Below, in pieces: positions 12,404 through 59,972 of a DNA stretch of 64,000 nt. The position numbers were made by a program, and so were the translations under genes. The notes beneath the pieces are model-generated. The model made no database searches. It was given only the letters and a program-made list of their open reading frames with translations, and was not told the DNA's origin. The stretch is taken from the IMG/VR virus record IMGVR_UViG_3300046047_000103; one strand, written 5' to 3'. Position 1 is the stretch's first letter. Each line of letters opens with the position of its first letter. The stretch is from a virus. Lineage: Duplodnaviria; Heunggongvirae; Uroviricota; Caudoviricetes.

Positions 12404-13432
12404 TCACCATCCGTACTCACCGAATGACGCGATGTACTTCTGCACCTTACCGGACGACTTGACCCTTGGATCATTCAGGAAGATAGTCCTCAGATCTCTT
12501 CCAGCGATGATCTTGTGGAAGTACCTCGCCAGAGCCAGCAGCACGGTGTCATCAACATGATCATTTGACAGGACGCCCATCGTGAACATGATCTCATTCG
12601 TCTGGCCGTAATCGTGCTTATCATGGTTCACGATCGTGAGTACGTCCTTGACGAGAATCTTCCCGATTCTGCGGCCGAACGCTATCCCCCTGACGGCTAT
12701 TGACTTAGACGACTCGCTGATACGATATGATGTCTTCGCCTTGTCGATGAGATCTGGAAGCAGCTCCCAGCCCTGCAGGCCCTTGGCCATGCACGCGGTC
12801 TCCAGGGACTTGACTGCACCGTCGCTGTCAATGCGGTCGAATGCGGATCGGACGCCCTTACCGGCGTAGAACTCAAGATCATCGTTGCTAAGATTCCCGT
12901 GACCGCAGAACGTCTCCAGCTGGCTACGATCACCGATCTTACTGATGGCCGAGGCCACCCAGTTAGCGAGCTTGCCGCCGTCTGGAAGCCTCTTCAAGAC
13001 GGCGTTGATCGTGCTATGAGATGGCTTCCAGAACAAGACGCTCTTCAGATCGTCCTCTCCAGACTTGGGATCATTAGCAATGTTAAGCGCATCTTCCTCG
13101 CTGATGTGCTTCCAGTCCACGTAGCCCGGCCGGGCCTTCCAGTCCCTGTCCTGGAGTTCCTTCACCCTGTTAAGCAGTCGAAGGGCCTCGCCTTCCGGCG
13201 TGGTCTCATACGTGAGGTCAGGTGAGTTGCCGTACATGTACGGGTCACGGACCCTGAATCCGTGACCGTATCTCACGCAATCTAGAATAGCTTCGATCGT
13301 GTCGTCGGAGAGATAGTCAGTGTCGCCGTTCTTGAGATACCGGCGGGCAGTGCTGACATCATTCGTGGAGAACTCTACGATCGCTCCATTATCTGACATG
13401 CTTGCATCCTTCCTTGTTGGTAAGACAATCAT
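12404..13432 (-). CDS. hypothetical protein
   Basis: 342-aa ORF convergent with nrdE. Confidence 0.5.
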   Translation of the reverse strand: MIVLPTRKDASMSDNGAIVEFSTNDVSTARRYLKNGDTDYLSDDTIEAILDCVRYGHGFRVRDPYMYGNSPDLTYETTPEGEALRLLNRVKELQDRDWKARPGYVDWKHISEEDALNIANDPKSGEDDLKSVLFWKPSHSTINAVLKRLPDGGKLANWVASAISKIGDRSQLETFCGHGNLSNDDLEFYAGKGVRSAFDRIDSDGAVKSLETACMAKGLQGWELLPDLIDKAKTSYRISESSKSIAVRGIAFGRRIGKILVKDVLTIVNHDKHDYGQTNEIMFTMGVLSNDHVDDTVLLALARYFHKIIAGRDLRTIFLNDPRVKSSGKVQKYIASFGEYGW

Positions 13433-13539
13433 AACATAGTCTTATGAGAACAGGTGACGGCGTGTCCCATCTGAAGGCGTCTTGAACGATCTGTAATGTG
13501 ACCGGTTCAACTGTTCACAGCTGATCTTACCCGGATCAG

Positions 13540-13815
13540 TCACTTACCGCCTCTGTCCCTGCCTCCGGTGTAGTCGATGAGTGGAAGATCCTGATCACGC
13601 TTGTCATCAACGGATACGATCTTGAAGTCACGGATCGTCATCAGTGAGTCCGTCCAATCCTCGCGCCGTCCGTCACCTCCGAAGATCTTAACCTGGCAGT
13701 CTTCCAGCTGGACGGGAACCTCGTCACCGATACGGAAGACCTTCATTCCGCGTCCGAGGGCCTTGGTCTGCCATTCATGATCATTCGTGTCTTTGATGGA
13801 ATCGTACATGCCCAT
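13540..13815 (-). CDS. small hypothetical protein
   Basis: 91-aa ORF. Confidence 0.35.
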   Translation of the reverse strand: MGMYDSIKDTNDHEWQTKALGRGMKVFRIGDEVPVQLEDCQVKIFGGDGRREDWTDSLMTIRDFKIVSVDDKRDQDLPLIDYTGGRDRGGK

Positions 13816-13842
13816 TAGTGAATCCCCTATTCTTCCATGGTC

Positions 13843-14121
13843 TCATAGTCTGTCGTCGGGCTGATGGCAATAGATGCAGTCGTCGTGACCCGGATCGTCA
13901 TCATCGTCATAGATGCAGCTCCCTGTCGGACTGTCCTCGCATGCCCATACTCCAAGATCTGGATGATTGATCCCCGTGATCTCGGATACGATCATCATGA
14001 TCTCAAGATCGTGCCCATTGATGATCCTAGCCCATGTCTTCATGGGCTCACGAGCATTACGGATCTTGTACTGGTGAACCCTGATCTTGGCGATCTCAAC
14101 TGCGGTCGCCGTTCTCATCAC
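13843..14121 (-). CDS. small Cys-rich hypothetical protein
   Basis: 92-aa ORF with C-terminal CIYDDDDDPGHDDCIYCH. Confidence 0.35.
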   Translation of the reverse strand: MMRTATAVEIAKIRVHQYKIRNAREPMKTWARIINGHDLEIMMIVSEITGINHPDLGVWACEDSPTGSCIYDDDDDPGHDDCIYCHQPDDRL

Positions 14122-14729
14122 AGATCCCTCTTGTTGGTGAGATCGATGTCAGATCTGCGCACGACGCTTCCGATGCGCTTGAACTTGTTCTTGGATGGGA
14201 TCAGGTCAAGATCCTTAAGACGGGCTTCCATGGTCTTCGCGGTCACCTTGAATCGTTTCGAGATCTGCTTCACGGTCTTGCCTGCAGTCCATTGCGCGGC
14301 CACGGCGTCCTCCGGCATGGAGAGATTGTATGCGAAGCGTCTGATCCACTTCTTGACGGGCGCGCTGGCATCGTTGCCTGCAAGCTTGATAGCAATCGTG
14401 TCCGTCGATCCGGAGGCATCAAGGGGATCCTGTAGGGCGTAGATACCAAGAGCGATGGCAAGGGCGATCGTCCTGTCCGCTTCAGACACTGTCTCATCAA
14501 GAACGATGGTCGACGGCAGACCGGACTCATGCTTGATGATGACGACGCCGTCCACATGATGATCTCGCGTGATGTTAGGCTTCCTGTACATGGGGATGTG
14601 CAGATCGTTGACAAGAGTTGACGGTGGCACCCTGTCAGCACCGGCTACTGATCTTCCCACTGACGCGATGACCCGCTCGACCGCTCTAGCGGGATCCGTC
14701 TTGATCGTTATGCCTTCCATCAGAATCAC
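14118..14729 (-). CDS. DNA-binding protein with a C-terminal helix-turn-helix
   Basis: TAGKTVKQISKRFKVTAKTMEARLKDL resembles sigma-70 region 4 / an HTH. Confidence 0.45.
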   Translation of the reverse strand: MILMEGITIKTDPARAVERVIASVGRSVAGADRVPPSTLVNDLHIPMYRKPNITRDHHVDGVVIIKHESGLPSTIVLDETVSEADRTIALAIALGIYALQDPLDASGSTDTIAIKLAGNDASAPVKKWIRRFAYNLSMPEDAVAAQWTAGKTVKQISKRFKVTAKTMEARLKDLDLIPSKNKFKRIGSVVRRSDIDLTNKRDL

Positions 14730-14878
14730 CTTCCTGTCCGCAGACTACCTGAGTCCATGATAACACGCTGACGCAGATCTGCAACCGGCGCGCTGGTCAC
14801 CGGCGCATGACCATGCTTCTCATCGTATGATGCGGAAAGGACTGCTTCCTGACACGATTCCTGAGACTGACGCCGCGG

Positions 14879-15298
14879 TTGATGGTCACGATCTTGTATC
14901 CCCGGACGGCGAAGGGGCAGATGCTTGCCCAGATGGCCTATGCGATGGGTGGACGGGCTGCCGAGGAGATCTTCACGGGGACGTCGACCACAGGTGCAAG
15001 CAATGACTTCGAGAAGGCCACGCAGATCGCCAGGGACATGGTGACGAAGTACGGTTACGGATCTGACACCGGGCTTGCAGCGTGGTCATCTGATGACAAG
15101 ATGATGTCAGAATCAACCAGATCTGCCATTGACCGGGAGGTGATCACCCTGCTGAATGATGCCATGGCGACCGCACGGAGGGCTATCACCGTGAACAAGA
15201 CAGTGCTGTCAGATCTTGTTGGCAGGCTGGTCGAGCATGAGACCATCAACGGATCAGAGCTTGATGGCGTGATCGCCAAGGTGTCCGCGGTGGATTGA
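14879..15298 (+). CDS. ftsH: FtsH protease C-terminal fragment. It lacks the AAA and HEXXH parts.
   Basis: VTILYPRTAKG...MGGRAAEEIFTGTSTTGASNDFEKATQIARDMVTKYGYG aligns with FtsH KVTIIPRG...LGGRAAEEI..STGASNDI..AT.IAR.MVT. TTG/ATG start. An in-frame stop 50 nt upstream excludes a longer protein. Confidence 0.55.
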   Translation: MMVTILYPRTAKGQMLAQMAYAMGGRAAEEIFTGTSTTGASNDFEKATQIARDMVTKYGYGSDTGLAAWSSDDKMMSESTRSAIDREVITLLNDAMATARRAITVNKTVLSDLVGRLVEHETINGSELDGVIAKVSAVD

Positions 15299-15308
15299 TC
15301 TTGATATC

Positions 15309-15896
15309 ATGATGCTGTATGGAGGGGAAGGCGTCTTGAATGGAATCATAGTACTGGAAATTGCGGATCTGATGTGCTTGATGATTCTTCCGTCTAGCAT
15401 CGTGATGACTGCCGGTGCACGGCGTCGTGAAGCTGCGGAAGAGTCATTCTTGAAGTCATGGATCGAATTCTGGACGCTGACGAGGGTCATGGCGGTGTCG
15501 ATCATCATCGGCGCGACAGCGCTGTTGAGCGTCATCATTCTTGGACCGATCCATTCGACGTTCGACAATGATGTCAGTGACGGAGCCCGAACTGCTGCCA
15601 TCATGGGTGGCAATGACACTGAATTAGTGTCTGCGTTCAATAAGGACGATGCTGGCGATGATCGCGGCCAAGTGGACAGTGTGGCCGATCTTCTGAAGAG
15701 TCAATTGATCAAGGATGGGTTCATCGTTACCAACGTCAAGTGTGATCCGAAGACGGCAGACGCTGGTGACAAGGTCAGCTGCTCGGTGGATGGACGGATT
15801 CCGGTTCCGTTCGCACCTGACATTCAGATCTCATCGTCCGCATCAGCTCTGTCCGAGGTCAATGCGTCACATAAGACCAGTGCGTCCACATCTTGA
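15309..15896 (+). CDS. membrane-anchored secreted protein with a DUF4333-like two-Cys domain
   Basis: TM helix, then IVTNVKCDPKTADAGDKVSCSVDG (DUF4333-like pattern). Confidence 0.4.
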   Translation: MMLYGGEGVLNGIIVLEIADLMCLMILPSSIVMTAGARRREAAEESFLKSWIEFWTLTRVMAVSIIIGATALLSVIILGPIHSTFDNDVSDGARTAAIMGGNDTELVSAFNKDDAGDDRGQVDSVADLLKSQLIKDGFIVTNVKCDPKTADAGDKVSCSVDGRIPVPFAPDIQISSSASALSEVNASHKTSASTS

Positions 15897-16043
15897 TGTC
15901 CGATAAGCATTGGAATAACAGTAGGGCATTCTCAGTCAATGGACGCGATCTGATTCCAGATGACAAGTAGCTCTTCAAGTTGCATCCGTCGCAGATCTGC
16001 GATATTTTAGTAACGTCAAGTAATCTTATAGGGAGGAAATTCC

Positions 16044-16616
16044 ATGCCGTCATTCTTAACCAAGAAGAATTCGTTCATCGGAGCGGTCATCATTGTAGTC
16101 ATCGTCGTCTTCGTCGGATTCTTCCTCGCCGCGCAGGGCGCTAAGAACTCCGCCATCAAGCAGGAGAACATGATCGAGCGCGAGCAGTCTAATGTCCAGA
16201 CGATCGTGCAGAAGCGTGTTGATGCACTCACTGAGCTCATCAACACCGTCAAGGCGTCTAGCAAGTTCGAGCAGGATACAATCACCAAGCTCACTGATGC
16301 TCGCAGCAAGGCGAAGACCGGTGATATCGAGGGCAGCGCTACCGTTCTTCAGGCGACCGCGGAAGCGTATCCAGATCTGAAGAGCATTGACCTGTTCTCT
16401 CAGGTGAACCAGGAGACCGTCACCATCGAGAATCAGCTGTCGAATTCAAGGCAAGCGTATAACACGGCCATCCGCGACTACAGGAATAAGACGCAGACCT
16501 TCCCGAACAGCAGTCTGCTTGCAATGGCAGGGTACACTGCGAAGGACTACAAGCCGTTCACGGCTAATAGCTCCGCGCAGGACTACGATCCGTCATCTGA
16601 CAATCTCTGGAACTGA
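16044..16616 (+). CDS. lemA: LemA family membrane protein
   Basis: N-terminal TM. VDALTELINTVKAS...AYPDLKS...TENQL..R.AYN.A.RDYN...FP matches the LemA family. Confidence 0.8.
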   Translation: MPSFLTKKNSFIGAVIIVVIVVFVGFFLAAQGAKNSAIKQENMIEREQSNVQTIVQKRVDALTELINTVKASSKFEQDTITKLTDARSKAKTGDIEGSATVLQATAEAYPDLKSIDLFSQVNQETVTIENQLSNSRQAYNTAIRDYRNKTQTFPNSSLLAMAGYTAKDYKPFTANSSAQDYDPSSDNLWN

Positions 16617-16688
16617 TCACATACTGCCGGCACAGTCCGGCACTCATCATTAAGACCGTGTCTATGTTCTTAAGGAAAGAAGACGATC

Positions 16689-17510
16689 ATGTCCTTCCTC
16701 TCTCGGGGAGTACTTGGTAAGCTCAAGGGTCGGACGTTCCTGATCCTGGTGGCCATTCTCACAGGTCTTATCATTCTGACGACGATCAACGCCGTTCTTA
16801 TCAACATGTGGAAGGATCATGACAGCGAGGTCAGGAGTAAGATCATATCTGGTCTCTCCGTGACCACGGCCAAAGATCTTGGCTGGCAGGTGAAGACCCA
16901 GGCGGGCAATCTTGTCGTTCAGGGTAAGGTCACGATCCCGAAGGATCAGTGCGCCAGGTTCAATGAGATGGACGGATCATACTGCGCCGCATCCGTGACG
17001 AAGACCGAGGAGATCTATACCCGTCATGAACGCAAGTATGATTGCGGGGCCGATGCTCATCCGAGGACTTGCACTGAGGTCTATTGGTCATGGGATCTGG
17101 CCGGATCGTGGTCAGATCAGGCAAGCAATGGTGTGATCCTCGGCAAGACGCTCCCGTATTCATGGCTGCGTGCAAGTGAAGACAGAGTGGATCCATCCGT
17201 CATTGGTATCAATGGATGCAGATTTAGGTACTGCTATGAGGGATCTGGCATCAGATACTCATACAAGGCCGCTCCGGGGAGGTATTCAGGGGTCGCTTAT
17301 CTTACATCTGACAGTGATGGCCTGTCAAGCTTCAACGGATTCGATGAAGATGAGACCGCGGATGGAGCGAAGAATGCAGCCCAGCACCCGTCTGTGATTC
17401 CCGACGTCGTGTTCTGGATCGTTGAGTTCATTCTGATGGCAGCTGCCAGCGCTATTGGATTCACCGTCGTCAGGAATGACCTTGATGACGGTGCAGACAA
17501 TGATTTCTGA
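16689..17510 (+). CDS. membrane protein with a Cys-rich extracytoplasmic domain
   Basis: N- and C-terminal TM segments. Downstream of lemA. Confidence 0.5.
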   Translation: MSFLSRGVLGKLKGRTFLILVAILTGLIILTTINAVLINMWKDHDSEVRSKIISGLSVTTAKDLGWQVKTQAGNLVVQGKVTIPKDQCARFNEMDGSYCAASVTKTEEIYTRHERKYDCGADAHPRTCTEVYWSWDLAGSWSDQASNGVILGKTLPYSWLRASEDRVDPSVIGINGCRFRYCYEGSGIRYSYKAAPGRYSGVAYLTSDSDGLSSFNGFDEDETADGAKNAAQHPSVIPDVVFWIVEFILMAAASAIGFTVVRNDLDDGADNDF

Positions 17511-17732
17511 TCTCACCAGTCATCTTCAGATCCAGCTATGCGCAGAAGCATAGACCCTACTGCCATTCTGAACGCAATCAGATCGGTCATGCGCTGGAAA
17601 GCGCGATCTAGTATGACGTTACTTCTTGAACGCTGTTGCGTCTTCAGATGCCAGATCTGTCATCATTGCCTTGACGGCGTGTCTGTCGTCAAGGCATGTT
17701 ATCATTGATGTATCCAATCATAATGGGAAGGC

Positions 17733-20507
17733 GTGAACATGGCATTGTCTACACTGTCCAAGGCTAACACCGCGGTCACCGGTCATAAGACCGTAGGGTT
17801 CATGGGTAGTACGATCAGCAAGCATACGATGACGTTCAGTGAGGACGTCATCCAGATGATCGTCCAGCAGTTGACGGATCTTTACAGTGATCCCATTGCT
17901 GCGACCGTGCGTGAGACCATATCGAACGCGATCGATGCGACCCTGCTGGCGAGGGAGCGGGGTGAGGATGCTCCAGATGTGGACGTGTCGACCCCATCTG
18001 CGTTCAGCCCCACGTTCACGGTGGAAGATCATGGCGTGGGCATGACGAGTGACCAGATCTACTCCAACTTCGCTGACTACGGCAATTCGACGAAGATCGA
18101 TGACATGACCGCAACGGGATCTAAGGGTCTTGGAGCTAAAGCGCCATTGGCCTACACGACGACGTGCGTGGTGTCGACCGTGAAGGATGGTCATAAGATC
18201 ATCCTCACCCTGAATCGTGGTGAGAATTCGAACGAGGCCGAGACCATCTTCGATGGTGATGTTGATGAGCATAATGGTACGAAGATAGAGATCCCGGTCC
18301 GCGCTGAGGATGCGGACAAGTTCCAGGAATGCATCAACAAGTACAAGATGAATGCAGACGCGAGCATCCCCCTGCGGATTGACGGTGAGCCGGCTTACAA
18401 GCAGTTCAATGAGATATGGTCGAAGCTCATCGACTTCCCGATCGCGAAGGACGCTGAGGGCAAAGACATCTATGGCACTCTGTACGTGAAGAAGTCTTAC
18501 ATCCGCCAAGCGTTCAAGGAATGGAGAGATCTTGTCAGAGCAGCCAGTAACCACGATTGGTCGACTGAGGACAGGAACAACATTGCAGAGATAACCTCGG
18601 TGTCGCTGATGGGCTGGAACTATGAGATGCGGGCCGGTCAGTATTACTACACGAAGAACGAGTTCTTGGTCAGGATAGCACCTGGCGTCGTCGACTTCCC
18701 TCCGTCTCGTGATTCGATCAAGCGGAATGACCGTCTTGACAGCCTGCTCGACGCTATCAGAGACGGCATGAAGATCAGGCCGTATGCCCCTGATGAATTC
18801 ACGGAGGAGTTCCCGGCTGCCGTGGCGGAGATCTGGGGATCGATATCCCCGGATGAACGCATCGAGGTTCTTGACCAGATAGCAGATATGGACTTCAAGA
18901 TGGACACCACTGCACTCATGAAGGTCTGGCCTGACGAGGTGAAGCTTTACACTGATGATTATGATGGGAAGTACTTCCGCGCGATTCTCGGATTCAACAT
19001 TCCGTACTCGACGACCTTTCCCATGATATCAAGTTCATTCATCTTCAGGAACAATTCGATGGCAGACAAGACGGAGTCACCGTTGTCCACATTCTCGATC
19101 CATGGGACGTCAGTGCGGAACATCAACATGCTTCTGAACAACTCTGCCGACGATGAGATCAATGATGACAAGACATCTGAGGCGCGTGCTGATGAGATCA
19201 ACGGTCTCTTCCGTGACGATGATGTTCTCGAAGATTGCTCTAAGCTGATCTCTGTCAGAATCGGTTGGATGAAGAAGCACGTATCACTGTTCGCGAGCGA
19301 TTACGCTTCGAACTCATGCCTGACCATCATCAAGGGCAAGTTCGAGGGCAGCAAGTCGTACAGAAGGCTGCGAAGGTACATCAAGTCGGATCAGATCAAC
19401 CATTCATCAAGACAGATCTGCTGCATCGTTGACGGGGATGTGGACGCTCACGACTTTGACGACATGAAGAAGTCCGCGGAGGCTAATCATGTCGAATGGG
19501 GTGGAGTCATCGACTGGGATGACGTGACGGTCAAGAGTAAGACTGTGAAGACTCCAGGCAAGAAGCAGGCCGAGAACGTTCCGGTCAGCGGATACCTGGA
19601 CGCAGCCGTGGGCAGCCCCCTCAGGCAGAGGTTCGCGGTGCTCCTGAACAGGAACGGTTCTTACCCCGACTTCAATGATACGCTTGATCTTCAGGATCTT
19701 AGAGACAATGATGGCACGGTGTGGATCTATTCCAGGAGCTGGGGGAATCGTGACGCTTGCATCTTGCTGACCGAGATGGTGAAGAACCGCGCCGTCGTTG
19801 ATGGAAAGCCGTTCGCTCTGATTAACGCCTCGGACCATGACCATGGACTGCGAGCAGCTGCCTTCAATGTCTTGTCAGGATATGACAAGATTTGGATCGT
19901 GGATGGTACTCCGAAGATCCCGCGCTACAAGGCTATGAAGGACGCTCACATCATCAAGTATGGTAGTGACCCTGGCTTAGCTATGAGCCAGGCTATACTG
20001 TCTGATGCTGACCATTGGTCTGACCTTGTCTATGAGTTCTTGTGTTCGACCGATCTGCTGACAGAGAAGTCGTCACTAGAGGCCAGGTTAATCAATCTGG
20101 CCGAGCAGATCACCGGAACCGTCAAGCATGCCAAGTCTTTTGACGCTAAGATGTACAAGGGCGTTCTTGACGTCATGCTGGAGGCGTCCAAACCTTACCA
20201 GTTCAAGCAGATCGTCGCCCCGTTGCTGAAGAATCCGCCTAAGAACGCCAAGGTGATGGAGGCGGCCAGGGAGCTGGCCTACCATTCCGAGCTTAAGTCC
20301 AAGATCCAGGATGACCAGTCTAACCTTGATGTCGTCATGGTGAAGTCCATGGTGACGACGAATTGGGGATGGGGATCATATGACATTCTCAAGGATCTCC
20401 CCAAGTTTGACCCCTCGACTTCCATGATCGCGCAGTCCATCAAGGAATGGTGGACTGGCTACGCGACCCCGATCTATAAGCATGCCGTCGCTAATTGCGG
20501 ATTCTGA
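17733..20507 (+). CDS. rIIA: rIIA-like protein with an N-terminal GHKL (Bergerat-fold) ATPase domain
   Basis: N box TVRETISNAIDA, G1 VEDHGVGMT and G2 GSKGLGAKAPLAY. 924 aa. A ~319-aa partner follows, as in T4 rIIA/rIIB. Confidence 0.55.
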   Translation: MNMALSTLSKANTAVTGHKTVGFMGSTISKHTMTFSEDVIQMIVQQLTDLYSDPIAATVRETISNAIDATLLARERGEDAPDVDVSTPSAFSPTFTVEDHGVGMTSDQIYSNFADYGNSTKIDDMTATGSKGLGAKAPLAYTTTCVVSTVKDGHKIILTLNRGENSNEAETIFDGDVDEHNGTKIEIPVRAEDADKFQECINKYKMNADASIPLRIDGEPAYKQFNEIWSKLIDFPIAKDAEGKDIYGTLYVKKSYIRQAFKEWRDLVRAASNHDWSTEDRNNIAEITSVSLMGWNYEMRAGQYYYTKNEFLVRIAPGVVDFPPSRDSIKRNDRLDSLLDAIRDGMKIRPYAPDEFTEEFPAAVAEIWGSISPDERIEVLDQIADMDFKMDTTALMKVWPDEVKLYTDDYDGKYFRAILGFNIPYSTTFPMISSSFIFRNNSMADKTESPLSTFSIHGTSVRNINMLLNNSADDEINDDKTSEARADEINGLFRDDDVLEDCSKLISVRIGWMKKHVSLFASDYASNSCLTIIKGKFEGSKSYRRLRRYIKSDQINHSSRQICCIVDGDVDAHDFDDMKKSAEANHVEWGGVIDWDDVTVKSKTVKTPGKKQAENVPVSGYLDAAVGSPLRQRFAVLLNRNGSYPDFNDTLDLQDLRDNDGTVWIYSRSWGNRDACILLTEMVKNRAVVDGKPFALINASDHDHGLRAAAFNVLSGYDKIWIVDGTPKIPRYKAMKDAHIIKYGSDPGLAMSQAILSDADHWSDLVYEFLCSTDLLTEKSSLEARLINLAEQITGTVKHAKSFDAKMYKGVLDVMLEASKPYQFKQIVAPLLKNPPKNAKVMEAARELAYHSELKSKIQDDQSNLDVVMVKSMVTTNWGWGSYDILKDLPKFDPSTSMIAQSIKEWWTGYATPIYKHAVANCGF

Positions 20508-20582
20508 CGGCAAGGCGTTTTCATTCCGTCAGCCCAATGATATAATGAGAAGTGAGCAAGTACATAAGATGGTAAGGAGAAG

Positions 20583-21542
20583 ATGATGGCAACTGTAACC
20601 AGTCTGTCCGGGAACTATAACACGCTGAACAAGGAGTACGACGAACTTCACGGCGCGCTTACTCTCGATGACGGGACTATGAAGACGTTCACCCTGCAAG
20701 GAGGTGGTGACCGCACCGAGGAATTCGATTCCATCGTCAAGGGCATCGATGAGGGTGTAAGCAATGCTGAGCTTGCTGAACTCATCTTGAAGGCGTCGGA
20801 TAAGATCGGCATCGTCGAATCCAGGATCTCATCGAATCTGGAGTCGATCGGATTTGATGATCGTCTGACGAGAAGCGGCAACCGCATCTTCGTTGACGGT
20901 GAGCCGATCGACCCGGTTCTTGAGCGCGAGATCTTGTCCATTCTCAATCATGAGTCCGCGTCAAGCGAGGATGACAACTCCAGGAACTGGAAGTCCCTGC
21001 TCATGTTCGTCAAGGATCTGTACTCGAACAGTAATGAGTACGTCCGGGGGCAGCTGTTCTCATGGCTCAAGGCGAACTTCGAGTCTTCGTCCAAGGGCTT
21101 CACGCTGCTTGACGATGGACGGATCGTCGGGTACAAGGGCGTTGCGCGTACGGATGACGGAACGCCGCAGAGCTCGTACACCGGTCTTGGTCTGGTCAAG
21201 GAGAAGGGCGAGACCGAGTTCCATGAGGTGAATGGCCATATCCCGAATAAGATCGGCTCCACCATCTCCATGCCGCGTAGCCTTGTCACTAATGACCCTA
21301 ACATTGGCTGCGCTCCGGGTCTGCATATCGGAACATGGGACTACGCTTACTCATGGGGCAACGGGTATGTCCTCACGGTCGCGTTCAGCGCGTCTGACGT
21401 GGTAAGCGTCCCTGTGGACTCCGGGTTCAAGAAGCTTCGTGTCTGCAAGTATGAGGTTCTGAACGTCACCGAGACGCCGCATCATGACATCAGTCTTGAC
21501 TATGATGATGACGACGACGAATATGATGATGGAGAGGATTGA
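20583..21542 (+). CDS. rIIB: rIIB-like protein (tentative) with an acidic C-terminal tail
   Basis: 319 aa, immediately downstream of the rIIA-like gene. The size matches T4 rIIB (312 aa). No independent motif evidence. Confidence 0.35.
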   Translation: MMATVTSLSGNYNTLNKEYDELHGALTLDDGTMKTFTLQGGGDRTEEFDSIVKGIDEGVSNAELAELILKASDKIGIVESRISSNLESIGFDDRLTRSGNRIFVDGEPIDPVLEREILSILNHESASSEDDNSRNWKSLLMFVKDLYSNSNEYVRGQLFSWLKANFESSSKGFTLLDDGRIVGYKGVARTDDGTPQSSYTGLGLVKEKGETEFHEVNGHIPNKIGSTISMPRSLVTNDPNIGCAPGLHIGTWDYAYSWGNGYVLTVAFSASDVVSVPVDSGFKKLRVCKYEVLNVTETPHHDISLDYDDDDDEYDDGED

Positions 21543-21832
21543 TCTGTAGTCAAGATCTGTCATCTTTAATGGCGTGACTTCCTGATATCTTGCCAGTGGA
21601 AGTCACGCCATTTTTCATATAAGGAGCCTGTCATGGCATTACCTAGAAGAGCCCGTCCGAGAGACCTTGAAGAGTACTCCGAGCCTGCGCCTGAGGTCAC
21701 CAGCACACCGAGTCAGATCCATTTTGATCTACCATCATATGGGGTTCGAAGCCGATCGTCATCCCCGATCCGGAGAGACCTGACCTTGAGGAGCATAAGC
21801 CTTCCGCAGATCACGGATCTAAGCATGACGCC

Positions 21833-22375
21833 ATGAGGGAGCAGTCGAGACCGGCCGTGCAGCCACCTGACCGCAGTCCAGCGCATCCAGATCCGGCTGT
21901 GAAGGAAGCAGGGGCTTCAGGATCTGATACTAGTCTGATAGCATTAGCCTTCGCCGTGGCCGGTCTCCCTCCATTCGCCTTGTTCATCGTGGTAGCCGTA
22001 TGGCTACTGAGCGGGAACGTCATGACCGGTCTGTTCACGGCCGGGCTTCTGATCTTACTACTTCCGGTCATTGGACTGGCGATGGGTATCATGGCTCTTG
22101 TCAAGAAGGGTAAGATGACGGCGATGGTCGCATCCGCGCTCGCTATCGTGCTTTCACTGATCTCACTGTCCGCATTCGGGATCGTGTACATGCGCAGGAG
22201 CGAGATCGTATCTAATGTGGAGTCCGGGATAGCCGGTCTCGTGTCATCGCAGATGGAGAAGAGTCTTGCGGGTGGATCGTCCAATAATGGATCCGGTGCT
22301 ACAGGGTCGGACGCAGTCCCGCCAGCTCCGGTACCATCAGACGACCCGCTCTATGATGAGATCAGCAACAGTTAA
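21833..22375 (+). CDS. polytopic membrane protein
   Basis: About four hydrophobic helices, then a Ser/Gly-rich tail. Confidence 0.45.
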   Translation: MREQSRPAVQPPDRSPAHPDPAVKEAGASGSDTSLIALAFAVAGLPPFALFIVVAVWLLSGNVMTGLFTAGLLILLLPVIGLAMGIMALVKKGKMTAMVASALAIVLSLISLSAFGIVYMRRSEIVSNVESGIAGLVSSQMEKSLAGGSSNNGSGATGSDAVPPAPVPSDDPLYDEISNS

Positions 22376-22386
22376 GGAGTGATCAT

Positions 22387-22995
22387 ATGATACGCGCAAT
22401 ACAGAGGGTAAGATCCCATCACGGATGGACGGGCATGCTTGTACTTCTCGGATCTGGAATGGGTCTGCTGGCATCGTTCATGCTTTCACTGGAAGCATAC
22501 TGGCGGGCGCTGAACCCGACTCAGGTGTTCTCATGTGACGTGAACGCGAAGCTCTCATGCTCCAGCGTGGCCGCGTCATGGCAGTCCACGCTCTTGCACT
22601 GGCCGGGCGGTGGAGCTATCCCGAACGCATTCCTCGGTCTTGGCATCTTCGCCGTGTTCGTGACGATCGGCGTGTTCATAGCGAGTCACGCGACCATCCC
22701 GGAATGGATACTCTGGGGCTTCAGATTGGGGGTCGTCGCTGAGCTGGTGTTCTCGACCTGGCTGTTATGGGAGTCGATGTTCGTGATCGGTGCGATGTGC
22801 CCATGGTGCCTGACCATGGATCTTGGATCCATCTTGCTTGCATTCGGTGCGTTCAGGGACTGGGCGCTTGCGAAGGGCGATCGGCATCCCAGAGCGTTGA
22901 GATTCACGATCGGAATGGAATCCCTGCTGGTATCTGTTCTCATCTTGCTAGCATTCGCCTTCATTGTCGTCTTGCATTACTTTGGATCAATTTAG
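22387..22995 (+). CDS. vitamin K epoxide reductase (VKOR) homolog
   Basis: Loop Cys pair CDVNAKLSC (Cx7C) plus the active-site CPWC in a TM helix. Polytopic. Confidence 0.65.
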   Translation: MIRAIQRVRSHHGWTGMLVLLGSGMGLLASFMLSLEAYWRALNPTQVFSCDVNAKLSCSSVAASWQSTLLHWPGGGAIPNAFLGLGIFAVFVTIGVFIASHATIPEWILWGFRLGVVAELVFSTWLLWESMFVIGAMCPWCLTMDLGSILLAFGAFRDWALAKGDRHPRALRFTIGMESLLVSVLILLAFAFIVVLHYFGSI

Positions 22996-23057
22996 TTTTG
23001 CAAAGCCCGTGATCTTTTGATATGATCGTATCATGTTCAATATGAGAGGAGCAGTGA

Positions 23058-24305
23058 ATGGCAAGCGCATCTAAAGCGGCAGTCCAGAGGGTCACCCCGG
23101 CTAAGGCTGACATTGATTCAGAGTTGCGGAAGGCTAGAGACCTTGCTGGAGCTACGAGGAAGTCGTATGACGAGCTTGACGGGCAGGTGGCGAAGACTAT
23201 TAAGACCATCTTCGATGTCAAGTCAGATAAGGATTCGACCCAGCTTGAGCATGTCTATGAGTTGCATGAGAAGTATTCTAACCTCGGCGCTGATGCGCTG
23301 AAGGGTCTCATGCCGGATCTGACGAACGAATCGTTCAACGTCTCCATGAAGGAGCTTGACTACGGATCAGAGGCTAGCAAGGACATCTCCAAGACCCTTG
23401 CCAAGGTGTCTGACTCCCTGGCTGATCTTGATGCTTCCAAGATCAGCCACCGGCCTAGCAACGCCTTGCTCAGGGCGGTCTATGATCCCGTGCGCGGGTT
23501 CTTCAACCGGAGCAGGAAGGCCGGCGCCGTCATCGAGAGCTGCATGAAGACGCTGACGAAGTACGAGCTGTCCCTGATATCAGACATCGCTGCGTACAAT
23601 AAGGACAGGGTGAGAGCTGCGAAGTGCGCTGAGGTGGCCACCCAGCAGGCGGAACTAGCCGATGAGATCATCAAGGAGCTCCGCAAGCAGCTTGCTTCCA
23701 TGACGTTCGACGAGTCCAACATCGATCTGAAGAATGCGATCGAGTCGGAGGTGCTTGCCACGCTTGAACGCAGGAAGACCGATCTGCTTGAGATCGCCAC
23801 CGGCCAGGCTACATACATCGCGTCCATTGATCTGCTCTCGAAGACGCATTACAAGATTCTTGAGATCGTGAAGAGCACGAAGAACACGGCTGTCATCCAG
23901 TTCCGTTCCGCGGTCCAGGTCGCGCACGGGATCTATGTCCAGGAGACCGCTCGCAAGGCTGTACTCACCACGAACAAGGCAAGCTCTGATCTTGACATGG
24001 ACAATGCGGTGAACTTGAAGGAGTCCGTTAAGAACATCAGTGATGTCAGTCATGTACTGCATGACAACATTGATTCCATGTCCGCAGCGCTGAACACGGT
24101 TCTGGAAGCCCATGACGCATTCAAGAGTGCTGAGGCGTCATCTGCCGACGTGGCGAGGGACGCTGCCGAGAGAGCGCAGAAGCAGCTCCGTCTCATGAAC
24201 AAGAAGCTGGAGCAGTCGAAGATTCTTGACGATACGAGAAACGATCTGCTGGCTAAGATCACCTCGTCGTCACATGAAGATGCGGCGGATGGTGATGTCC
24301 AGTGA
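23058..24305 (+). CDS. TelA/KlaA-like coiled-coil protein (tentative)
   Basis: 415 aa, all-helical and coiled-coil rich. The resemblance to TelA is weak and recalled from memory. Confidence 0.35.
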   Translation: MASASKAAVQRVTPAKADIDSELRKARDLAGATRKSYDELDGQVAKTIKTIFDVKSDKDSTQLEHVYELHEKYSNLGADALKGLMPDLTNESFNVSMKELDYGSEASKDISKTLAKVSDSLADLDASKISHRPSNALLRAVYDPVRGFFNRSRKAGAVIESCMKTLTKYELSLISDIAAYNKDRVRAAKCAEVATQQAELADEIIKELRKQLASMTFDESNIDLKNAIESEVLATLERRKTDLLEIATGQATYIASIDLLSKTHYKILEIVKSTKNTAVIQFRSAVQVAHGIYVQETARKAVLTTNKASSDLDMDNAVNLKESVKNISDVSHVLHDNIDSMSAALNTVLEAHDAFKSAEASSADVARDAAERAQKQLRLMNKKLEQSKILDDTRNDLLAKITSSSHEDAADGDVQ

Positions 24306-26129: not shown

Positions 26130-27071
26130 TTGCGCATATCTTACACAACAATGAGGCACATATTCCACCAGCATGCAAGACATAAGGCCACCCGGTCGGG
26201 TGCGATCATATCACTGAATCGTAGGATCTCGCTAGTTCTGATAGCGGCCGCTGTCAGCATCGTATCCGCACTGACCGTCATTGATCGTCGTGCGGATGGA
26301 GCGGCAGGACCAGCTGCTTACACGGCTACCAGGACATGGAAGGAACCGGCCGTCAACAGTGATAGCACCGAGGTCTCCAGATCTGGACGGCGGCGTGCCC
26401 TGTTGACCGAGTCCACGTCAACAGATGCCGAGGGAAGCTGGGATCTTGGAGACGAGGAAGATATCGGCAAGAATCTTCAAGATCAGGCTAATGATCAGTC
26501 GAAGGCTATTGAGATCAGGTCGCGGATGACGGGCGACATCAATGGATGGAAGACGCTTGACAGCACTGCGTACACGGTTGACAGCTGGGCTGAATACTCG
26601 TCTGATCTTGATGCTGCCAATGATCTTGTCCATGACGGCAGTCTTGACGTCTCCGCTCTGCAGTCCACGCTTGACGATCTGGAACGATCCCACGCCGCCC
26701 TCAAGACCGTTCCCAAGATCGCTCCGGCGGTCAATCAAGGGCATGCGTCTGTTCCGAGCGGGCCAACCGTCCCGGTCAATGAGATCCAATCATACGCTCA
26801 TGATAAGGTCGTCAGCCGCGGATGGAGTGAGGCTGACTTCACCGCTCTTGTCTGGTTATGGAATCGGGAGTCAGGATGGAATCCGAATGCGTCTAATGCG
26901 TCATCAGGCGCGTACGGGATACCGCAGTGTCTTGGCCATGCGGAGTGTCAGTCCGATGCGTTCAAGACTGACTACAGGGTCCAGGTCGACTGGGGTCTCG
27001 GATATATTGCCGGCAGGTACGGTACCCCGTCGACAGCGCAGCAGCACAGTCTGTCTACAGGATGGTACTGA
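26130..27071 (+). CDS. membrane-anchored transglycosylase-like (IsaA/SceD/Rpf-type lysozyme-like) domain protein
   Basis: ESGWNPNASNASSGAYGIPQ matches the ESGGNYNAVNPSSGAAGKYQ transglycosylase-like signature. N-terminal TM. Confidence 0.5.
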   Translation: MRISYTTMRHIFHQHARHKATRSGAIISLNRRISLVLIAAAVSIVSALTVIDRRADGAAGPAAYTATRTWKEPAVNSDSTEVSRSGRRRALLTESTSTDAEGSWDLGDEEDIGKNLQDQANDQSKAIEIRSRMTGDINGWKTLDSTAYTVDSWAEYSSDLDAANDLVHDGSLDVSALQSTLDDLERSHAALKTVPKIAPAVNQGHASVPSGPTVPVNEIQSYAHDKVVSRGWSEADFTALVWLWNRESGWNPNASNASSGAYGIPQCLGHAECQSDAFKTDYRVQVDWGLGYIAGRYGTPSTAQQHSLSTGWY

Positions 27072-27904
27072 TGGCCGGCGGTGAAGACATGGATGAGCGC
27101 AAGATCTTAAGGGTGCGGTTCGTGATACCGGTCAAGTACTATAAGGGATCAAACACGAATGATGTCCCTGCGGTGTCCAGGAGCAAGAGTCAGTGGCTGC
27201 GACGGTATGGTGAACAGGTCTGGTCTGACGCGATCAGGAGAGACTTCGGGATCGTGGCGGATGAGCCCGACGACTGGAAGAAGTCCAGTACGGCGTACTC
27301 ACCATCAGAGCAGAAGACCCATGACGCATTCACGGATCAGGATATGATCGTGGAGACCGCTTCCAATCTGGTGAAGACGCTTGAGGCCGATCATGAGAAC
27401 ATCCGTACGACCCTGCATGATGTGGACAAGAAGTCGTATGAGCATGCCGAGCTGAAGGCGCAGCTTGCTTCCATCGAGGATGATCTGAAGACGGCGAAGC
27501 GGCGTCTTCAGATCGAGTCGAAGCTGTTGACGAAGACGCGGAATGCGTTCAAGACTGCCCACAGCCGTCAGGACTCCAGAAGGTCAAGGGCGGATCGGAA
27601 GTCATACATCAAGGAGAAGTCCAGGCTGAATGAGGGCAAGCTCTTGTTCCCAGGACGGGTCACTCTCGATGTCAGATCTAATATCATAACAGCCCATGAC
27701 TTTGATGCTCCGAACTGCTGGCCGTCCGTGAAGCCATTGCAAGACGGGGGTACAGACACTTGCATCTTATGGCATGATGACAACAACAACTTCATCACGC
27801 GGACAAGCTTCTACGGCGGAGGCAAGGAAGACAGCAAGAACTATGTGATCGATATGATCGTCCGTGAGGACGATGGTGACGGATCAGATCCGTTCCGTGA
27901 CTGA
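27062..27904 (+). CDS. hypothetical protein
   Basis: 280-aa ORF with a coiled-coil segment. Confidence 0.45.
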   Translation: MVLMAGGEDMDERKILRVRFVIPVKYYKGSNTNDVPAVSRSKSQWLRRYGEQVWSDAIRRDFGIVADEPDDWKKSSTAYSPSEQKTHDAFTDQDMIVETASNLVKTLEADHENIRTTLHDVDKKSYEHAELKAQLASIEDDLKTAKRRLQIESKLLTKTRNAFKTAHSRQDSRRSRADRKSYIKEKSRLNEGKLLFPGRVTLDVRSNIITAHDFDAPNCWPSVKPLQDGGTDTCILWHDDNNNFITRTSFYGGGKEDSKNYVIDMIVREDDGDGSDPFRD

Positions 27905-40835: not shown

Positions 40836-41894
40836 ATGAACATCATAGAGTCAAACAACTCGTTAAGCATCTTCCCTGATGGGGTGAAGGTCTATAAGAC
40901 CATACCGGCCGGCGTCTATAAGATAGAGTCAAGCGCTACTTCCGGATTCTATCTGGTGCGGCGCGGTGATCTTCCGGTGGACGGTAAGGTCTACGGGAAT
41001 CGTGATCATGAGGTCGATAAGGTCTTCACCATGTTCAATCACGTGGACAAGTCCCTCGGAGTGATCCTCTCCGGTCCTAAGGGCATTGGTAAGACCCTGT
41101 TCTCAAGAATGCTTGCACGGCATGCGATCAGTGTTGGGATTCCGGTCATTCTCGTGACTGACAACACTGATGGGATCCAGAATTATCTTGAAAGCATTGA
41201 CCAGAAGGCCATGATCTTGTTCGACGAGTTCGAGAAGACCTTCCTGAACGTCTCATCGGACAATACAGGTGGATGCACTCAGGACGATCTGCTCTCCCTG
41301 TTCGATGGGCTATCCACCGCCAAGCACTTGAACGTGATTACCGTGAATGACATCGGCAGGGTAAGCTCATTCCTCGTGAATCGTCCTGGAAGATTCCATT
41401 TCAACATCAGGTTCATGTATCCAACCGCTGATGAGATCAGGGAGTACTTGCATGATCAGCTGGATGACCAGGAGTATGAAGACATCGATGAGATCGTCCA
41501 GTTCTCCGGGAAGTACCCGTTGAATTACGATTGCCTCAAGGCCATCGTCGATGAGGTCAATCTGTTCCATGAGCCGTTCGAGGACACGATCAAGGACCTT
41601 AACATCGTCAACTGGGGCATCGAATCGATCTTCAAGTATCAGGTCGTATGGAAGAATGGAAGGGTATGGTCTACAACCGAGACTGATGCTCCGTTCAATG
41701 ATAGCATGTCATTCATCTTCGACGATGGGAATTACTGCGATAACGTCGAGATACCCACGTCTAATATGGAGAGGGACAGGAATGGGAACATCGTGGTGAC
41801 AGATCTCAGCTTCATAGATAGCCATTTCCCTGATCGAGCGAATCTTGAGAAGATCGTGATCTCAATTGACCGGAAGGACTACCTGGCATTCTGA
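40836..41894 (+). CDS. AAA+ ATPase
   Basis: Walker A GPKGIGKT and Walker B ILFDEFE. Confidence 0.6.
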   Translation: MNIIESNNSLSIFPDGVKVYKTIPAGVYKIESSATSGFYLVRRGDLPVDGKVYGNRDHEVDKVFTMFNHVDKSLGVILSGPKGIGKTLFSRMLARHAISVGIPVILVTDNTDGIQNYLESIDQKAMILFDEFEKTFLNVSSDNTGGCTQDDLLSLFDGLSTAKHLNVITVNDIGRVSSFLVNRPGRFHFNIRFMYPTADEIREYLHDQLDDQEYEDIDEIVQFSGKYPLNYDCLKAIVDEVNLFHEPFEDTIKDLNIVNWGIESIFKYQVVWKNGRVWSTTETDAPFNDSMSFIFDDGNYCDNVEIPTSNMERDRNGNIVVTDLSFIDSHFPDRANLEKIVISIDRKDYLAF

Positions 41895-45332: not shown

Positions 45333-46613
45333 ATGATGATAGACTCCATGAACATGAACAGAACAAGGATCTACTTCTTACAGGGATGCCATGGATCCGG
45401 TAAGACTAATTTCATTGCTAGTAACGGACTTCAAGACTATACGGTGTCCATAGATGAGATCATAACGGCCTTGCATCCAACGGCCGACCGGTATGATCCG
45501 GTTACTGGGGAGATCCGATCCCATGAGGTTGATGTCACTAGGGACACCCTGTCATCAGCTCTTGACGTCGCGCAGTCCATCATCGAGCGTCGGATGCAGC
45601 TAGGCTCCGTCATCATCGTGGACTGGCTAGACGTGAAGCGGAGACGGATCGGTAAGATGATTGATCTCGCCTCGAAGTACCGGTACGGCGTGTCATTCGT
45701 TGACGTCCAGCGCGGGCTGACGCTCGATGAAGCTGTGGACAGATCGTATCCGTTATGGCCGCAGGATGAGGTCATGAAGACATGGACTGACAAGCACCAT
45801 TTCGAGTACGGTCGAGACGATGAGGTGATCACGCCAGCCGAGCTTGCCAGCAGGATGCATGTGAGTGAGGTCGATCTGTCCCCATATGATCGCGTCAACG
45901 TGGTTGGTGACATCCAGGGGTGCTTCCATGCGCTGGAGAGATCCGGTCTTGACAAGCATGCGGACAATGAGTACACGATCTTCTGTGGAGATCTGTTCGA
46001 CAGGGGTCCAGCTGATGAAGCCGGTCCGATGTTCGACTGGCTGGTTGATCATATCAGTGATGATCATATGACGTTCGTCCGTGGGAACCATGACTCGTAC
46101 ATCAAGTACTATGGTAATCCCGTGTACAAGCCGTACTCCAAGTCTACGGTCGACACGATCAATGAGATCATGCAGGATGCGGCCAGTGTCCGCGGATCGG
46201 ATAAGATGCTGCGCCGGCATGGTCACCGGATCAATGATGGGATGGTCGACTTCTTCCCGTTCAGGATCAATGGGAAGCATTACTTCGCATCTCATGCCGG
46301 TGTCCATCCGAATGATCTTCCGTACACAGATCTGGGAGGGTCGAGGACATATGAGATCGGCTTCGATACCGGAGCTAAGTACTGGTACGGAACAGGGTTA
46401 AGACCAGGATTCCATGACTACAGGATCGACATCGACAAGATCGTGGACGCTACGGACACTGACATCATCCAGTTCCATGGCCACAGGAATGAGTACAAGC
46501 ATCGTCCTGATGAGTACGGCAAGATCTTCAATCTTGAGACCGGAGTGGAGAAGGGCGGCAAGCTGAGTACGGCGACGATCGTGAACGGCGGGGTAACCAT
46601 CCAGCAATTCTGA
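45333..46613 (+). CDS. polynucleotide kinase-phosphatase-like protein (P-loop kinase plus calcineurin-like metallophosphoesterase)
   Basis: GCHGSGKTNF (T4 Pnk-like Walker A). GDIQGCF, FCGDLFDRGP and VRGNHD (metallophosphatase motifs). Confidence 0.6.
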   Translation: MMIDSMNMNRTRIYFLQGCHGSGKTNFIASNGLQDYTVSIDEIITALHPTADRYDPVTGEIRSHEVDVTRDTLSSALDVAQSIIERRMQLGSVIIVDWLDVKRRRIGKMIDLASKYRYGVSFVDVQRGLTLDEAVDRSYPLWPQDEVMKTWTDKHHFEYGRDDEVITPAELASRMHVSEVDLSPYDRVNVVGDIQGCFHALERSGLDKHADNEYTIFCGDLFDRGPADEAGPMFDWLVDHISDDHMTFVRGNHDSYIKYYGNPVYKPYSKSTVDTINEIMQDAASVRGSDKMLRRHGHRINDGMVDFFPFRINGKHYFASHAGVHPNDLPYTDLGGSRTYEIGFDTGAKYWYGTGLRPGFHDYRIDIDKIVDATDTDIIQFHGHRNEYKHRPDEYGKIFNLETGVEKGGKLSTATIVNGGVTIQQF

Positions 46614-58508: not shown

Positions 58509-59972
58509 GTGGAGGTGATGAGATTGATGATGAAGAATGGTAAGGTCATGATAGATGACCAAGATCTCTCCGTTGAGATCGGTGAAGCGAAGCGGCTTGG
58601 ATCGCAGTACGCGGAGTCAGATCACGATCTTGCTCTTGTTGGAGGACCGGTACGTGACCTGATGCTCGGATCGCATCCGAAGGACTTCGATATGACCACG
58701 GACGCCAGACCGGATGTCTCCGAGCGGATCTTGAAGGCGTGGGGATCGTCATTCTGGAACGTGGGTAAGAAGTACGGTACGATCGGTGCTGGCAGGGATG
58801 TCAGCAATGGTGTCCACATGGACGTCGAGGTCACCACGTACCGCAGCGATTCGTATGATGGGCGATCTCGCAAGCCTGCCGTGAAGTGGGGATCATCCCT
58901 GGAGGGTGACCTGCATCGTCGTGACTTCACCATGAATGCAATGGCCATCACCCTCCCCGGAATGAAGCTCGTGGATCCGTTCCATGGAGCGGAGGCTATA
59001 AAGAACAAGATCATCATGACGCCGGGTTCCCCGTATGACTCATTCAATGATGACCCGCTGCGGATGCTTCGTGCGGTCAGGTTCGCTGGCAAGCTTGGAT
59101 TCCATCTTGACGGCAGGGTGCTTGACGCGATCCGTGAGATGGCGCCGCGTCTGGATGAGATCAGCCGTGAACGGGTGTCTGACGAGTTGTCGAAGATCAT
59201 GCTGTCCGCCCATCCTGTGGACGCTCTGAAGCTGATGATGGATTCAGGTCTGATGGATCATGTGCTTCCTGAGTTCTCGGAGCTGAAGAGAAGTGATGCG
59301 ACGAGCCGTGGGATGCATAAGCTGAATTACGAGCATTCCCTCACGGTGCTGGAGAACGCGATCAGCATGGAGGACAGGCTCGGTAACGGGCCAGATCTGA
59401 TTCTTCGACTGTCCGCATTGCTTCATGATGTCGGCAAGGCCAGGACTCGCAGGTTCAATGGTCGCAGGAAGGTCACGTTCGACCAGCATGAATTCGTTGG
59501 TGCAGACATGATTCGGAAGCGTCTGAGGGCATTGAAGTATCCGAATGACGTGGTGAAGACCGTGAGTGATCTTATCGGACTGCATATGAGGGCTCACGGG
59601 TATGAGAGCAACGGATGGACTGATTCAGCCGTGCGGAGATTCGTGCATGAGGTTGGACCGTTGTATGATCGTCTCATGATTCTTACAAGAGCGGATGTGA
59701 CCACGTCCCATGCATCAAAAAAGGTGCGGGTGATGAAGAGCATCGACTCTCTTGAAGCGCATGTGGACAAGCTCTGGAAGATGGACGATCTGAATGCTGT
59801 CAGACCTGAGATCGATGGGAATGAGATCATGAAGATCCTTCAGATTCGACCTGGTAAGATCGTTGGCCAGTGCTATCGTCATATGCTTGAGTACAGGATC
59901 GTGAACGGTGCGGTCGGCCATGCAGCCGCGGTCCAGGAGCTGAAGAGATTCTACGCGGAGATCGCAGGTTGA
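58509..59972 (+). CDS. cca: CCA-adding tRNA nucleotidyltransferase with an HD domain
   Basis: LVGGPVRDLMLG, DFDMTTDARP, RRDFTMNAMA and LHDVGK. Confidence 0.8.
   Translation: MEVMRLMMKNGKVMIDDQDLSVEIGEAKRLGSQYAESDHDLALVGGPVRDLMLGSHPKDFDMTTDARPDVSERILKAWGSSFWNVGKKYGTIGAGRDVSNGVHMDVEVTTYRSDSYDGRSRKPAVKWGSSLEGDLHRRDFTMNAMAITLPGMKLVDPFHGAEAIKNKIIMTPGSPYDSFNDDPLRMLRAVRFAGKLGFHLDGRVLDAIREMAPRLDEISRERVSDELSKIMLSAHPVDALKLMMDSGLMDHVLPEFSELKRSDATSRGMHKLNYEHSLTVLENAISMEDRLGNGPDLILRLSALLHDVGKARTRRFNGRRKVTFDQHEFVGADMIRKRLRALKYPNDVVKTVSDLIGLHMRAHGYESNGWTDSAVRRFVHEVGPLYDRLMILTRADVTTSHASKKVRVMKSIDSLEAHVDKLWKMDDLNAVRPEIDGNEIMKILQIRPGKIVGQCYRHMLEYRIVNGAVGHAAAVQELKRFYAEIAG

Follow-up and report, generated by a model that had tools for sequence, protein, structure and literature searches.

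A probable 5'-truncated ftsH gene in a large phage and the phage-encoded FtsH family to which it points

The locus and its source phage

The DNA analysed in this study, called the window throughout, is a stretch of 64,000 nucleotides that is identical to part of a 349,703-bp metagenome contig, Ga0455797_000015 of JGI 3300043959, which was seen in five samples; 64 kb of this ~350-kb genome was read directly. Genes for ribonucleotide reductase (RNR), NrdI, rIIA, rIIB, a primase, a tRNA nucleotidyltransferase, a Pnk-like protein, LemA, TelA and VKOR were found in the window, a content that, judged from sequence, is that of a jumbo phage. Deposited phages include no close relative, with megablast of 13500-16700 giving no match, and IMG/VR searched with the fragment described below and both of its neighbours gave no related phage. 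The main features around the fragment are as follows.

12404-14729, minus strand: block of four genes (342, 91, 92 and 203 aa), with the plus-strand RNR gene on one side and the FtsH remnant on the other
14118..14729, minus strand: Peptidase_M78 (ImmA/IrrE)-like gene (E=9e-6), the divergent upstream neighbour, ~150 nt from the ORF
14730..14878, no strand: spacer that separates the two divergent genes and has no relation to ftsH, with the homology break at its right edge or just inside the ORF
14828-14830, plus strand: in-frame TGA that closes the frame 5' of the ORF, 48 nt before its TTG
14879..15298, plus strand: ORF of 139 codons, from TTG at 14879 to the stop TGA at 15296-15298
22387..22995, plus strand: VKOR gene, ~7 kb from the ftsH remnant

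The M78-like gene at 14118-14729, the last of the four genes in the minus-strand block, reads IALGI at the HEXXH position. It would thus place another metallopeptidase homologue that lacks the catalytic motif directly next to the FtsH remnant. Downstream of the ORF, positions 15309-24305 hold a membrane-associated run of genes. Between the remnant and VKOR these encode a 195-aa protein (transmembrane by eye), LemA, a 273-aa protein (phrog_3886), rIIA (924 aa), rIIB (319 aa) and a 180-aa protein; VKOR itself and TelA complete the run. Further along the plus strand are a gene for a Pnk-like kinase/phosphatase (45333-46613) and one for a CCA-adding tRNA nucleotidyltransferase (58509-59972; phrog_2244, E=2e-68), and together with the T4-type RNA ligase of the relatives described below these suggest that the phage group carries an RNA-repair gene set. 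The octamer GATCTTGA is present in 45 copies in the window, both strands counted, compared with 6.2 +/- 2.4 expected from dinucleotide-preserving shuffles. Examples are at 13618-13625, 14003-14010 and 15297-15304, and one copy is situated after the stop of the fragment and before the ORF that follows it.

The ORF encodes the C-terminal part of an FtsH protease domain

The JGI gene call starts at ATG 14882, giving a product of 138 aa. A Pfam scan matched the ORF to PF01434 (Peptidase_M41) with E=1.4e-30 over positions 58-189 of the 191 in the profile, and up to E=1 the only other match was to DUF5619, at chance level. Solved structures of FtsH and Yme1 match the ORF at E ~1e-16, always through their last ~125 residues, and an HMM of actinobacterial M41 domains is matched at positions 75-210 of 269. 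The AlphaFold model of the product (pLDDT 82.8) is compact and all-helical, and its superposition on FtsH of T. maritima (2ce7) gives a TM score of 0.8. The first-pass annotation, which was made from the letters alone, had described the ORF as a stand-alone C-terminal piece of FtsH, and these matches, which are far above chance, bear that description out. Two of the motifs that it quoted, GGRAAEEI and ATQIARDMVT, are exact, whereas the third, given as 'STGASND', reads TTGASND.

The profile coverage shows that the HEXXH-bearing part of M41 is missing from the ORF, and no HEXXH was found in the ORF or in any frame of 14650-14900. No AAA module was matched by Pfam in the ORF. There is also no N-terminal transmembrane anchor, as the ORF starts only 11 codons before the homology and the model has no hydrophobic N-terminal helix. 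The earlier statements that both HEXXH and the AAA module are missing, and that the upstream in-frame stop rules out a longer protein, were thus confirmed. Asp43 (in GASND) and both Glu29 and Glu30 (in GGRxAEE) are conserved in the ORF. In FtsH crystal structures from T. maritima and T. thermophilus, the Asp of TGASND serves as third zinc ligand. With no ATPase, no membrane anchor and only one zinc ligand out of three, the product cannot be a protease. The codon-usage score of the ORF frame is 0.453 per codon, compared with 0.373 +/- 0.087 for 30 window genes and with -0.79 to 0.16 for the other five frames.

The closest relatives are full-length FtsH proteins of a clade found on phage-like contigs

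When 1.84 billion representative proteins were searched exhaustively with HMMER, the best match other than the fragment itself was P0104 (E=5e-44, 65% identity), a full-length FtsH of 643 aa, and the next matches followed only at E ~5e-22. A scan of GTDB genomes returned full-length FtsH with 40-47% identity to the fragment, mainly from freshwater Microbacteriaceae, and a word-indexed protein search returned FtsH pieces of ~40% identity alone. A metagenome scan with the back-translated DKALLRPGRFDRQ pattern gave, among the matches listed, ordinary FtsH genes of 43-47% identity that appear to be bacterial. No second stand-alone copy was found in the 1.84 billion representatives or in the phage and IMG/VR collections, and on the sequences searched there is no family of stand-alone fragments. 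Several short M41-only proteins on long contigs (P0049, P0085, P0086, P0094, P0096 and P0101) were considered as stand-alone homologues and rejected, since their sequences resemble frameshifted or partial calls of bacterial ftsH; P0107 and other short matches from the exhaustive search were rejected as well, as they look like partial sequences or like sequences from outside the clade described next.

P0104 belongs to a metagenomic, mostly phage-borne clade with P0254-P0260 and P0106 (loci L085-L092), whose members are 600-643 aa long. They have transmembrane segments, an AAA+ ATPase, a HEGGH zinc site and the helical C-terminal subdomain, and they have in common the lack of an FtsH_ext domain, HEGGH, an SDDDxTNYT signature, a short loop between the second and third helix and a short C-terminus. 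Identity of the fragment to clade members other than P0104 is 40-48%, and the fragment has the indel pattern of the clade, with a loop 11-12 aa shorter than in bacterial FtsH and an end soon after the last helix. Five members (P0255, P0257, P0258, P0259 and P0260) are encoded on phage-like contigs of 7-101 kb. Genes for a T4-type RNA ligase, a Pnk-like protein, an SbcC-like protein, dCMP deaminase and a DNA methylase are found across the clade contigs, with an rIIA-like gene in one of them. The order of genes around ftsH is constant: a protein of ~150 aa, FtsH, a membrane protein, VKOR, a protein of ~160 aa, MoxR and DUF2201. Among L087-L092 this FtsH-VKOR-MoxR module, with a membrane protein of 226-285 aa and a MoxR of the AAA_5 type, was placed, for example, as follows.

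L087, 10001-17350: FtsH-VKOR-MoxR module
L091, 1241-10517: FtsH-VKOR-MoxR module
L092, 303-7251: FtsH-VKOR-MoxR module

In L091 the module is followed by rIIA. The clade is a coherent group of full-length FtsH proteins encoded on phage-like contigs, whose hosts are probably actinobacterial.

When the window was compared by tblastx with L087-L089, the longest of the clade contigs, the FtsH tail, VKOR and the ORFs at 26130..27071 and 27062..27904 were matched in the order in which they stand in the window. The Pnk-like gene is common to the window, L087-L089 and L090, and rIIA to the window and L091. The immediate neighbours of the fragment on both sides differ from those of the relatives. The fragment thus occupies the position at which the relatives have a complete ftsH, which argues for a copy of the phage's own ftsH that has lost its 5' part and against a piece of a host gene.

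This bears on the suggestion in the first-pass annotation that the ORF is a captured host gene, that is, that the 3' end of a host ftsH was taken up directly. The best cellular matches are actinobacterial FtsH, mainly of freshwater Microbacteriaceae (Rhodoluna, Aquiluna), and the G+C content of the window (~53%) is also in keeping with such an origin. However, the 40-47% identity to actinobacterial FtsH falls well short of the 65% to P0104, the fragment agrees with the P0104 clade in its shorter loop and short C-terminus, and it is colinear with the full-length gene of related phages. In addition, the fragment has phage-like codon usage, and its dS to the nearest relative has already reached saturation. 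Capture from a host is therefore considered extremely unlikely, and the suggestion was not upheld. It should be noted that the Microbacteriaceae among the best cellular matches (L005-L084) have very small genomes. They give a hint as to the host, one to be read with the bias that the search pattern put on which genomes appeared; a ~350-kb phage on such small-genome bacteria would be remarkable.

The homology border and the missing 5' part

The similarity to FtsH begins abruptly inside the ORF, and two features mark the border.

14912..15292, plus strand: homology to the C-terminal helical subdomain of the FtsH protease domain, equivalent to P0104 residues 513-639 (65% identity over 127 aa, gap-free)
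14885..14905, plus strand: possible leftover of the 'K(V/I)TILPRG' strand, which follows the HEXXH helix; reads VTILYPR, weak

The alignment starts at 14912 and ends 4 residues before the end of P0104, and at the DNA level the ORF region is 72% identical to L085 over 286 nt. MAFFT places VTILYPR (14885..14905) on the invariant TIL-PR columns. The match has p ~0.03 against the expected 47-aa segment and p=0.37 against the whole upstream 512 aa. VTILYPR is possibly a remnant of TILPRG, and if so, ~17 codons would have been deleted in frame between 14905 and 14912. The ~20 residues that all relatives have in common (GRALGYT...NYTR) have no counterpart in the ORF. Farther upstream, a possible frameshifted relic of the HEXXH region had been seen by eye at ~14803-14865 ('AHDHASHRMMRKGLLPDTIP') and was rejected: with an HMM of the N-terminal part of M41, its pieces rank worse than 1000th among 12,770 window pieces. 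Over 14650-14900 this HMM gave background scores, and DNA alignment of the region upstream of the ORF with four relatives was at chance level.

The missing part was also sought elsewhere. Tblastn of the 64-kb window with PA5oct FtsH, P0104 and P0106 found FtsH sequence at 14912-15292 alone, and the N-terminal 480 residues of seven clade FtsH proteins gave no match within the window. An AAA protein at 40836..41894 resembles the AAA region of PA5oct FtsH weakly (E=0.002, 21% identity) and was not matched by the P0104-clade queries. The flanking frames thus hold no disrupted full-length ftsH by either HMM or tblastn, so that the simple pseudogene that the first-pass annotation had allowed for was not found. 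When P0104 and its residues 1-512 were used as queries, no protein of the 349,703-bp contig was among the best 120 matches, lists in which a short AAA-only piece would rank below the cut-off; the fragment itself is indexed in the same database under this contig. This makes a full-length second copy of ftsH unlikely. An independent 5.6-kb Logan assembly (L002, SRR16378897) covers the junction with 100% identity, which shows that the structure is not an assembly chimera.

These results also bear on a split gene. In that case another site in the ~350-kb genome would encode the part with the transmembrane segments, AAA and HEXXH, and an active FtsH would be put together from both products. Jumbo phages do have split genes, an example being the split DNA polymerase of MIJ3 (PMC6892783), and direct inspection covered 64 kb of the genome. 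However, no protein of the contig came up among the best 120 matches. Moreover, the break is not at a domain border but inside the protease domain, between the zinc-binding helix and the third ligand, and the GRALGYT...NYTR residues are missing from the ORF. A split gene is thus very unlikely.

What stands in place of the 5' part is the minus-strand block at 12404-14729. None of its four genes has a counterpart in L086, L087 or L089, none has a PHROG match or a match to a defence system, and no repeats were found at the borders of the block. The 5' part of ftsH may have been replaced by this block.

Selection, age and expression

The first-pass annotation had also suggested that the gene could be decaying, and in this respect the data do not support it. 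In relative-rate tests against P0104 with 11 outgroups, the fragment had 7-12 private changes compared with 5-12 for P0104 (all p>0.2). It departs from its relatives at none of 21 invariant columns and at none of 30 columns conserved at 90% or more; among these columns are Glu29, Glu30 and Asp43, residues for zinc binding and catalysis in the complete enzyme. The dN/dS relative to the P0104 gene (L085) is 0.16 with dS saturated, a value that covers the whole path between both genes and not the truncated lineage alone. In a neutral simulation, an open frame was rare beyond 0.07 substitutions per site when indels were allowed and beyond 0.4 with substitutions only, while dS per branch between the fragment and P0104 is at least ~0.9. 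Taken together, the simulation and dS, the unchanged conserved columns and the normal rate exclude long neutral decay, so that either the truncation is recent or the fragment is selected. A recent event is favoured because Asp43 and the GASND motif were kept though useless without HEXXH, and because no other stand-alone copies were found. The event cannot be dated, since every copy available (L001, L002) matches the window exactly and even the nearest relative has just 65% identity.

With respect to expression, no consensus sigma-70 promoter was found in 14730..14878. One candidate translation start was identified.

14911..14923, plus strand: Shine-Dalgarno-like candidate start (GAAGGGG, CAG, in-frame ATG at 14921), which would give 125 aa

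Among the start regions of 36 other window genes, many have a GGAGG-like motif 3-9 nt upstream, and ATG 14882 has no ribosome-binding site of that kind. A start at ATG 14921, with a product beginning at the homology border and first conserved helix, thus appears more plausible than one at ATG 14882.

The open frame raises the alternative that the fragment has been kept as a small, functional, non-catalytic protein, a free helical subdomain. Such a protein could cap or poison FtsH hexamers of the host or of a co-infecting relative, or it could hold FtsH substrates or partners such as the membrane protein and VKOR of the module, and the effect would be an altered turnover of membrane proteins during infection. 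This alternative would fit the open frame, the full set of conserved residues, the unaccelerated rate and the normal codon usage. It would also fit the Shine-Dalgarno-like start exactly at the homology border, the compact and confident helical fold of the model and the position of the gene within a membrane-related cluster (LemA, rIIA/B, VKOR, TelA). Furthermore, lateral contacts within the protease ring of AFG3L2 are made mainly by the homologous helices, where mutations have a dominant effect (10.1101/551085), and C-terminal helices of Yme1 and FtsH have been proposed as sites of substrate engagement (PMC12994072).

However, several observations speak against a non-catalytic role. The fragment is a singleton in all of the collections searched, and residues that serve catalysis only (Asp43 and the Glu29-Glu30 region) are unchanged, which would not be expected after long service in a new role. 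Loss of the HEXXH helix would probably bare the core of the domain, and the annotated start has no ribosome-binding site. The ring interface of the phage clade also departs from that of bacterial FtsH, with Tyr or Phe for the Met that corresponds to AFG3L2 M666, Ile for the Arg that corresponds to R702 and a central-protrusion loop shortened by 11-12 aa. These differences mean that mixing with host FtsH hexamers is not obviously favoured. A non-catalytic role, which takes in the decoy or modulator of host FtsH considered in the first-pass annotation, is therefore put forward as a tentative alternative only. Its most specific form, in which the phage would have turned its own FtsH tail into a catalytically dead 'ring-interface' protein that inserts into or caps hexamers or sequesters substrates or partners, is doubtful. 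If true, truncation of the protease would have given rise to its own inhibitor or modulator, one that acts on membrane-protein quality control during infection.

A proposed young relic of a phage ftsH

The ORF is very likely what is left at the 3' end of a phage ftsH after loss of the first ~510 codons. The further proposal, that the relic is young and has no function under selection, is held with less confidence and is favoured by a modest degree. Relatives of this large phage carry a full-length, membrane-anchored FtsH just upstream of a membrane protein and VKOR, and the window has only the last ~127 codons of that gene at the colinear position. In the course of events that we propose, a rearrangement or replacement would have removed the 5' part of the gene in the lineage of the window. 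The truncation would be recent relative to the divergence among these phages, as the frame is still open and the conserved residues are all in place. The remnant is probably transcribed, being the first cistron of a plus-strand unit after a divergent intergenic region, and if translated from ATG 14882 or ATG 14921 it would give a helical protein of 125-138 aa.

Some caveats apply to this young-relic model. The intact frame of 139 codons, its phage-typical codons and the plausible internal ribosome-binding site would fit a functional small protein too, and useless DNA is usually purged from phage genomes. In addition, the absence of an N-terminal part beyond the 64 kb rests on an indirect argument from the database.

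By itself the fragment is of little consequence, being probably a young gene relic. Its main value is as a pointer to an undescribed family of phage-encoded FtsH proteins that are always linked to a membrane protein, VKOR and a MoxR/VWA pair, and the FtsH-VKOR-MoxR phage module is a more interesting lead than the fragment. The natural truncation in one lineage also shows that at least one phage of the group can do without the FtsH protease. Additionally, if the fragment is expressed, it would be a ready-made probe of FtsH protease-ring assembly.

Comparison with known systems

The fragment shares its fold with bacterial FtsH (MEROPS M41; 2ce7, 3kds, 7tdo, 2dhr; TM 0.8), together with the GGRxAEE and TGASND motifs. 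It differs from these proteins in having no anchor, AAA+ ATPase or HEXXH and in a central-protrusion loop shortened by 11 residues, and it lacks the long tail with which actinobacterial FtsH ends at the C-terminus. FtsH relatives without proteolysis are known from plastids, where FtsHi proteins (the Ycf2-FtsHi motor; 8xks, 8xku, 8xqw) gave weak sequence and fold matches to the fragment. However, FtsHi proteins keep the AAA+ motor and the membrane anchor and work as an import motor, whereas the fragment has neither part.

Lambda CIII is a phage inhibitor of FtsH. Any likeness to the fragment would lie solely in the speculative reading that a small phage protein interferes with FtsH, as CIII is an amphipathic-helix substrate and competitor and not a piece of the protease, and the two have no sequence relationship (Pfam to E=1).

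PA5oct and MIJ3, both jumbo phages of Pseudomonas, are the only phages for which an FtsH is described in the literature searched, and its function there is unknown (PMC6892783). This jumbo-phage homologue (EST35_0266, 576 aa) is 34% identical to the fragment in its C-terminal region. Unlike the fragment, it is full length, and it belongs to another lineage and another host phylum. The closest known counterparts remain the proteins of the P0104 clade, which resemble the fragment in the loop, the C-terminus, and the association with VKOR and other colinear genes. The difference is one of completeness: the clade proteins are complete at 600-643 aa, whereas the fragment has only the last ~127 residues (513-639), without HEGGH and without SDDDxTNYT.
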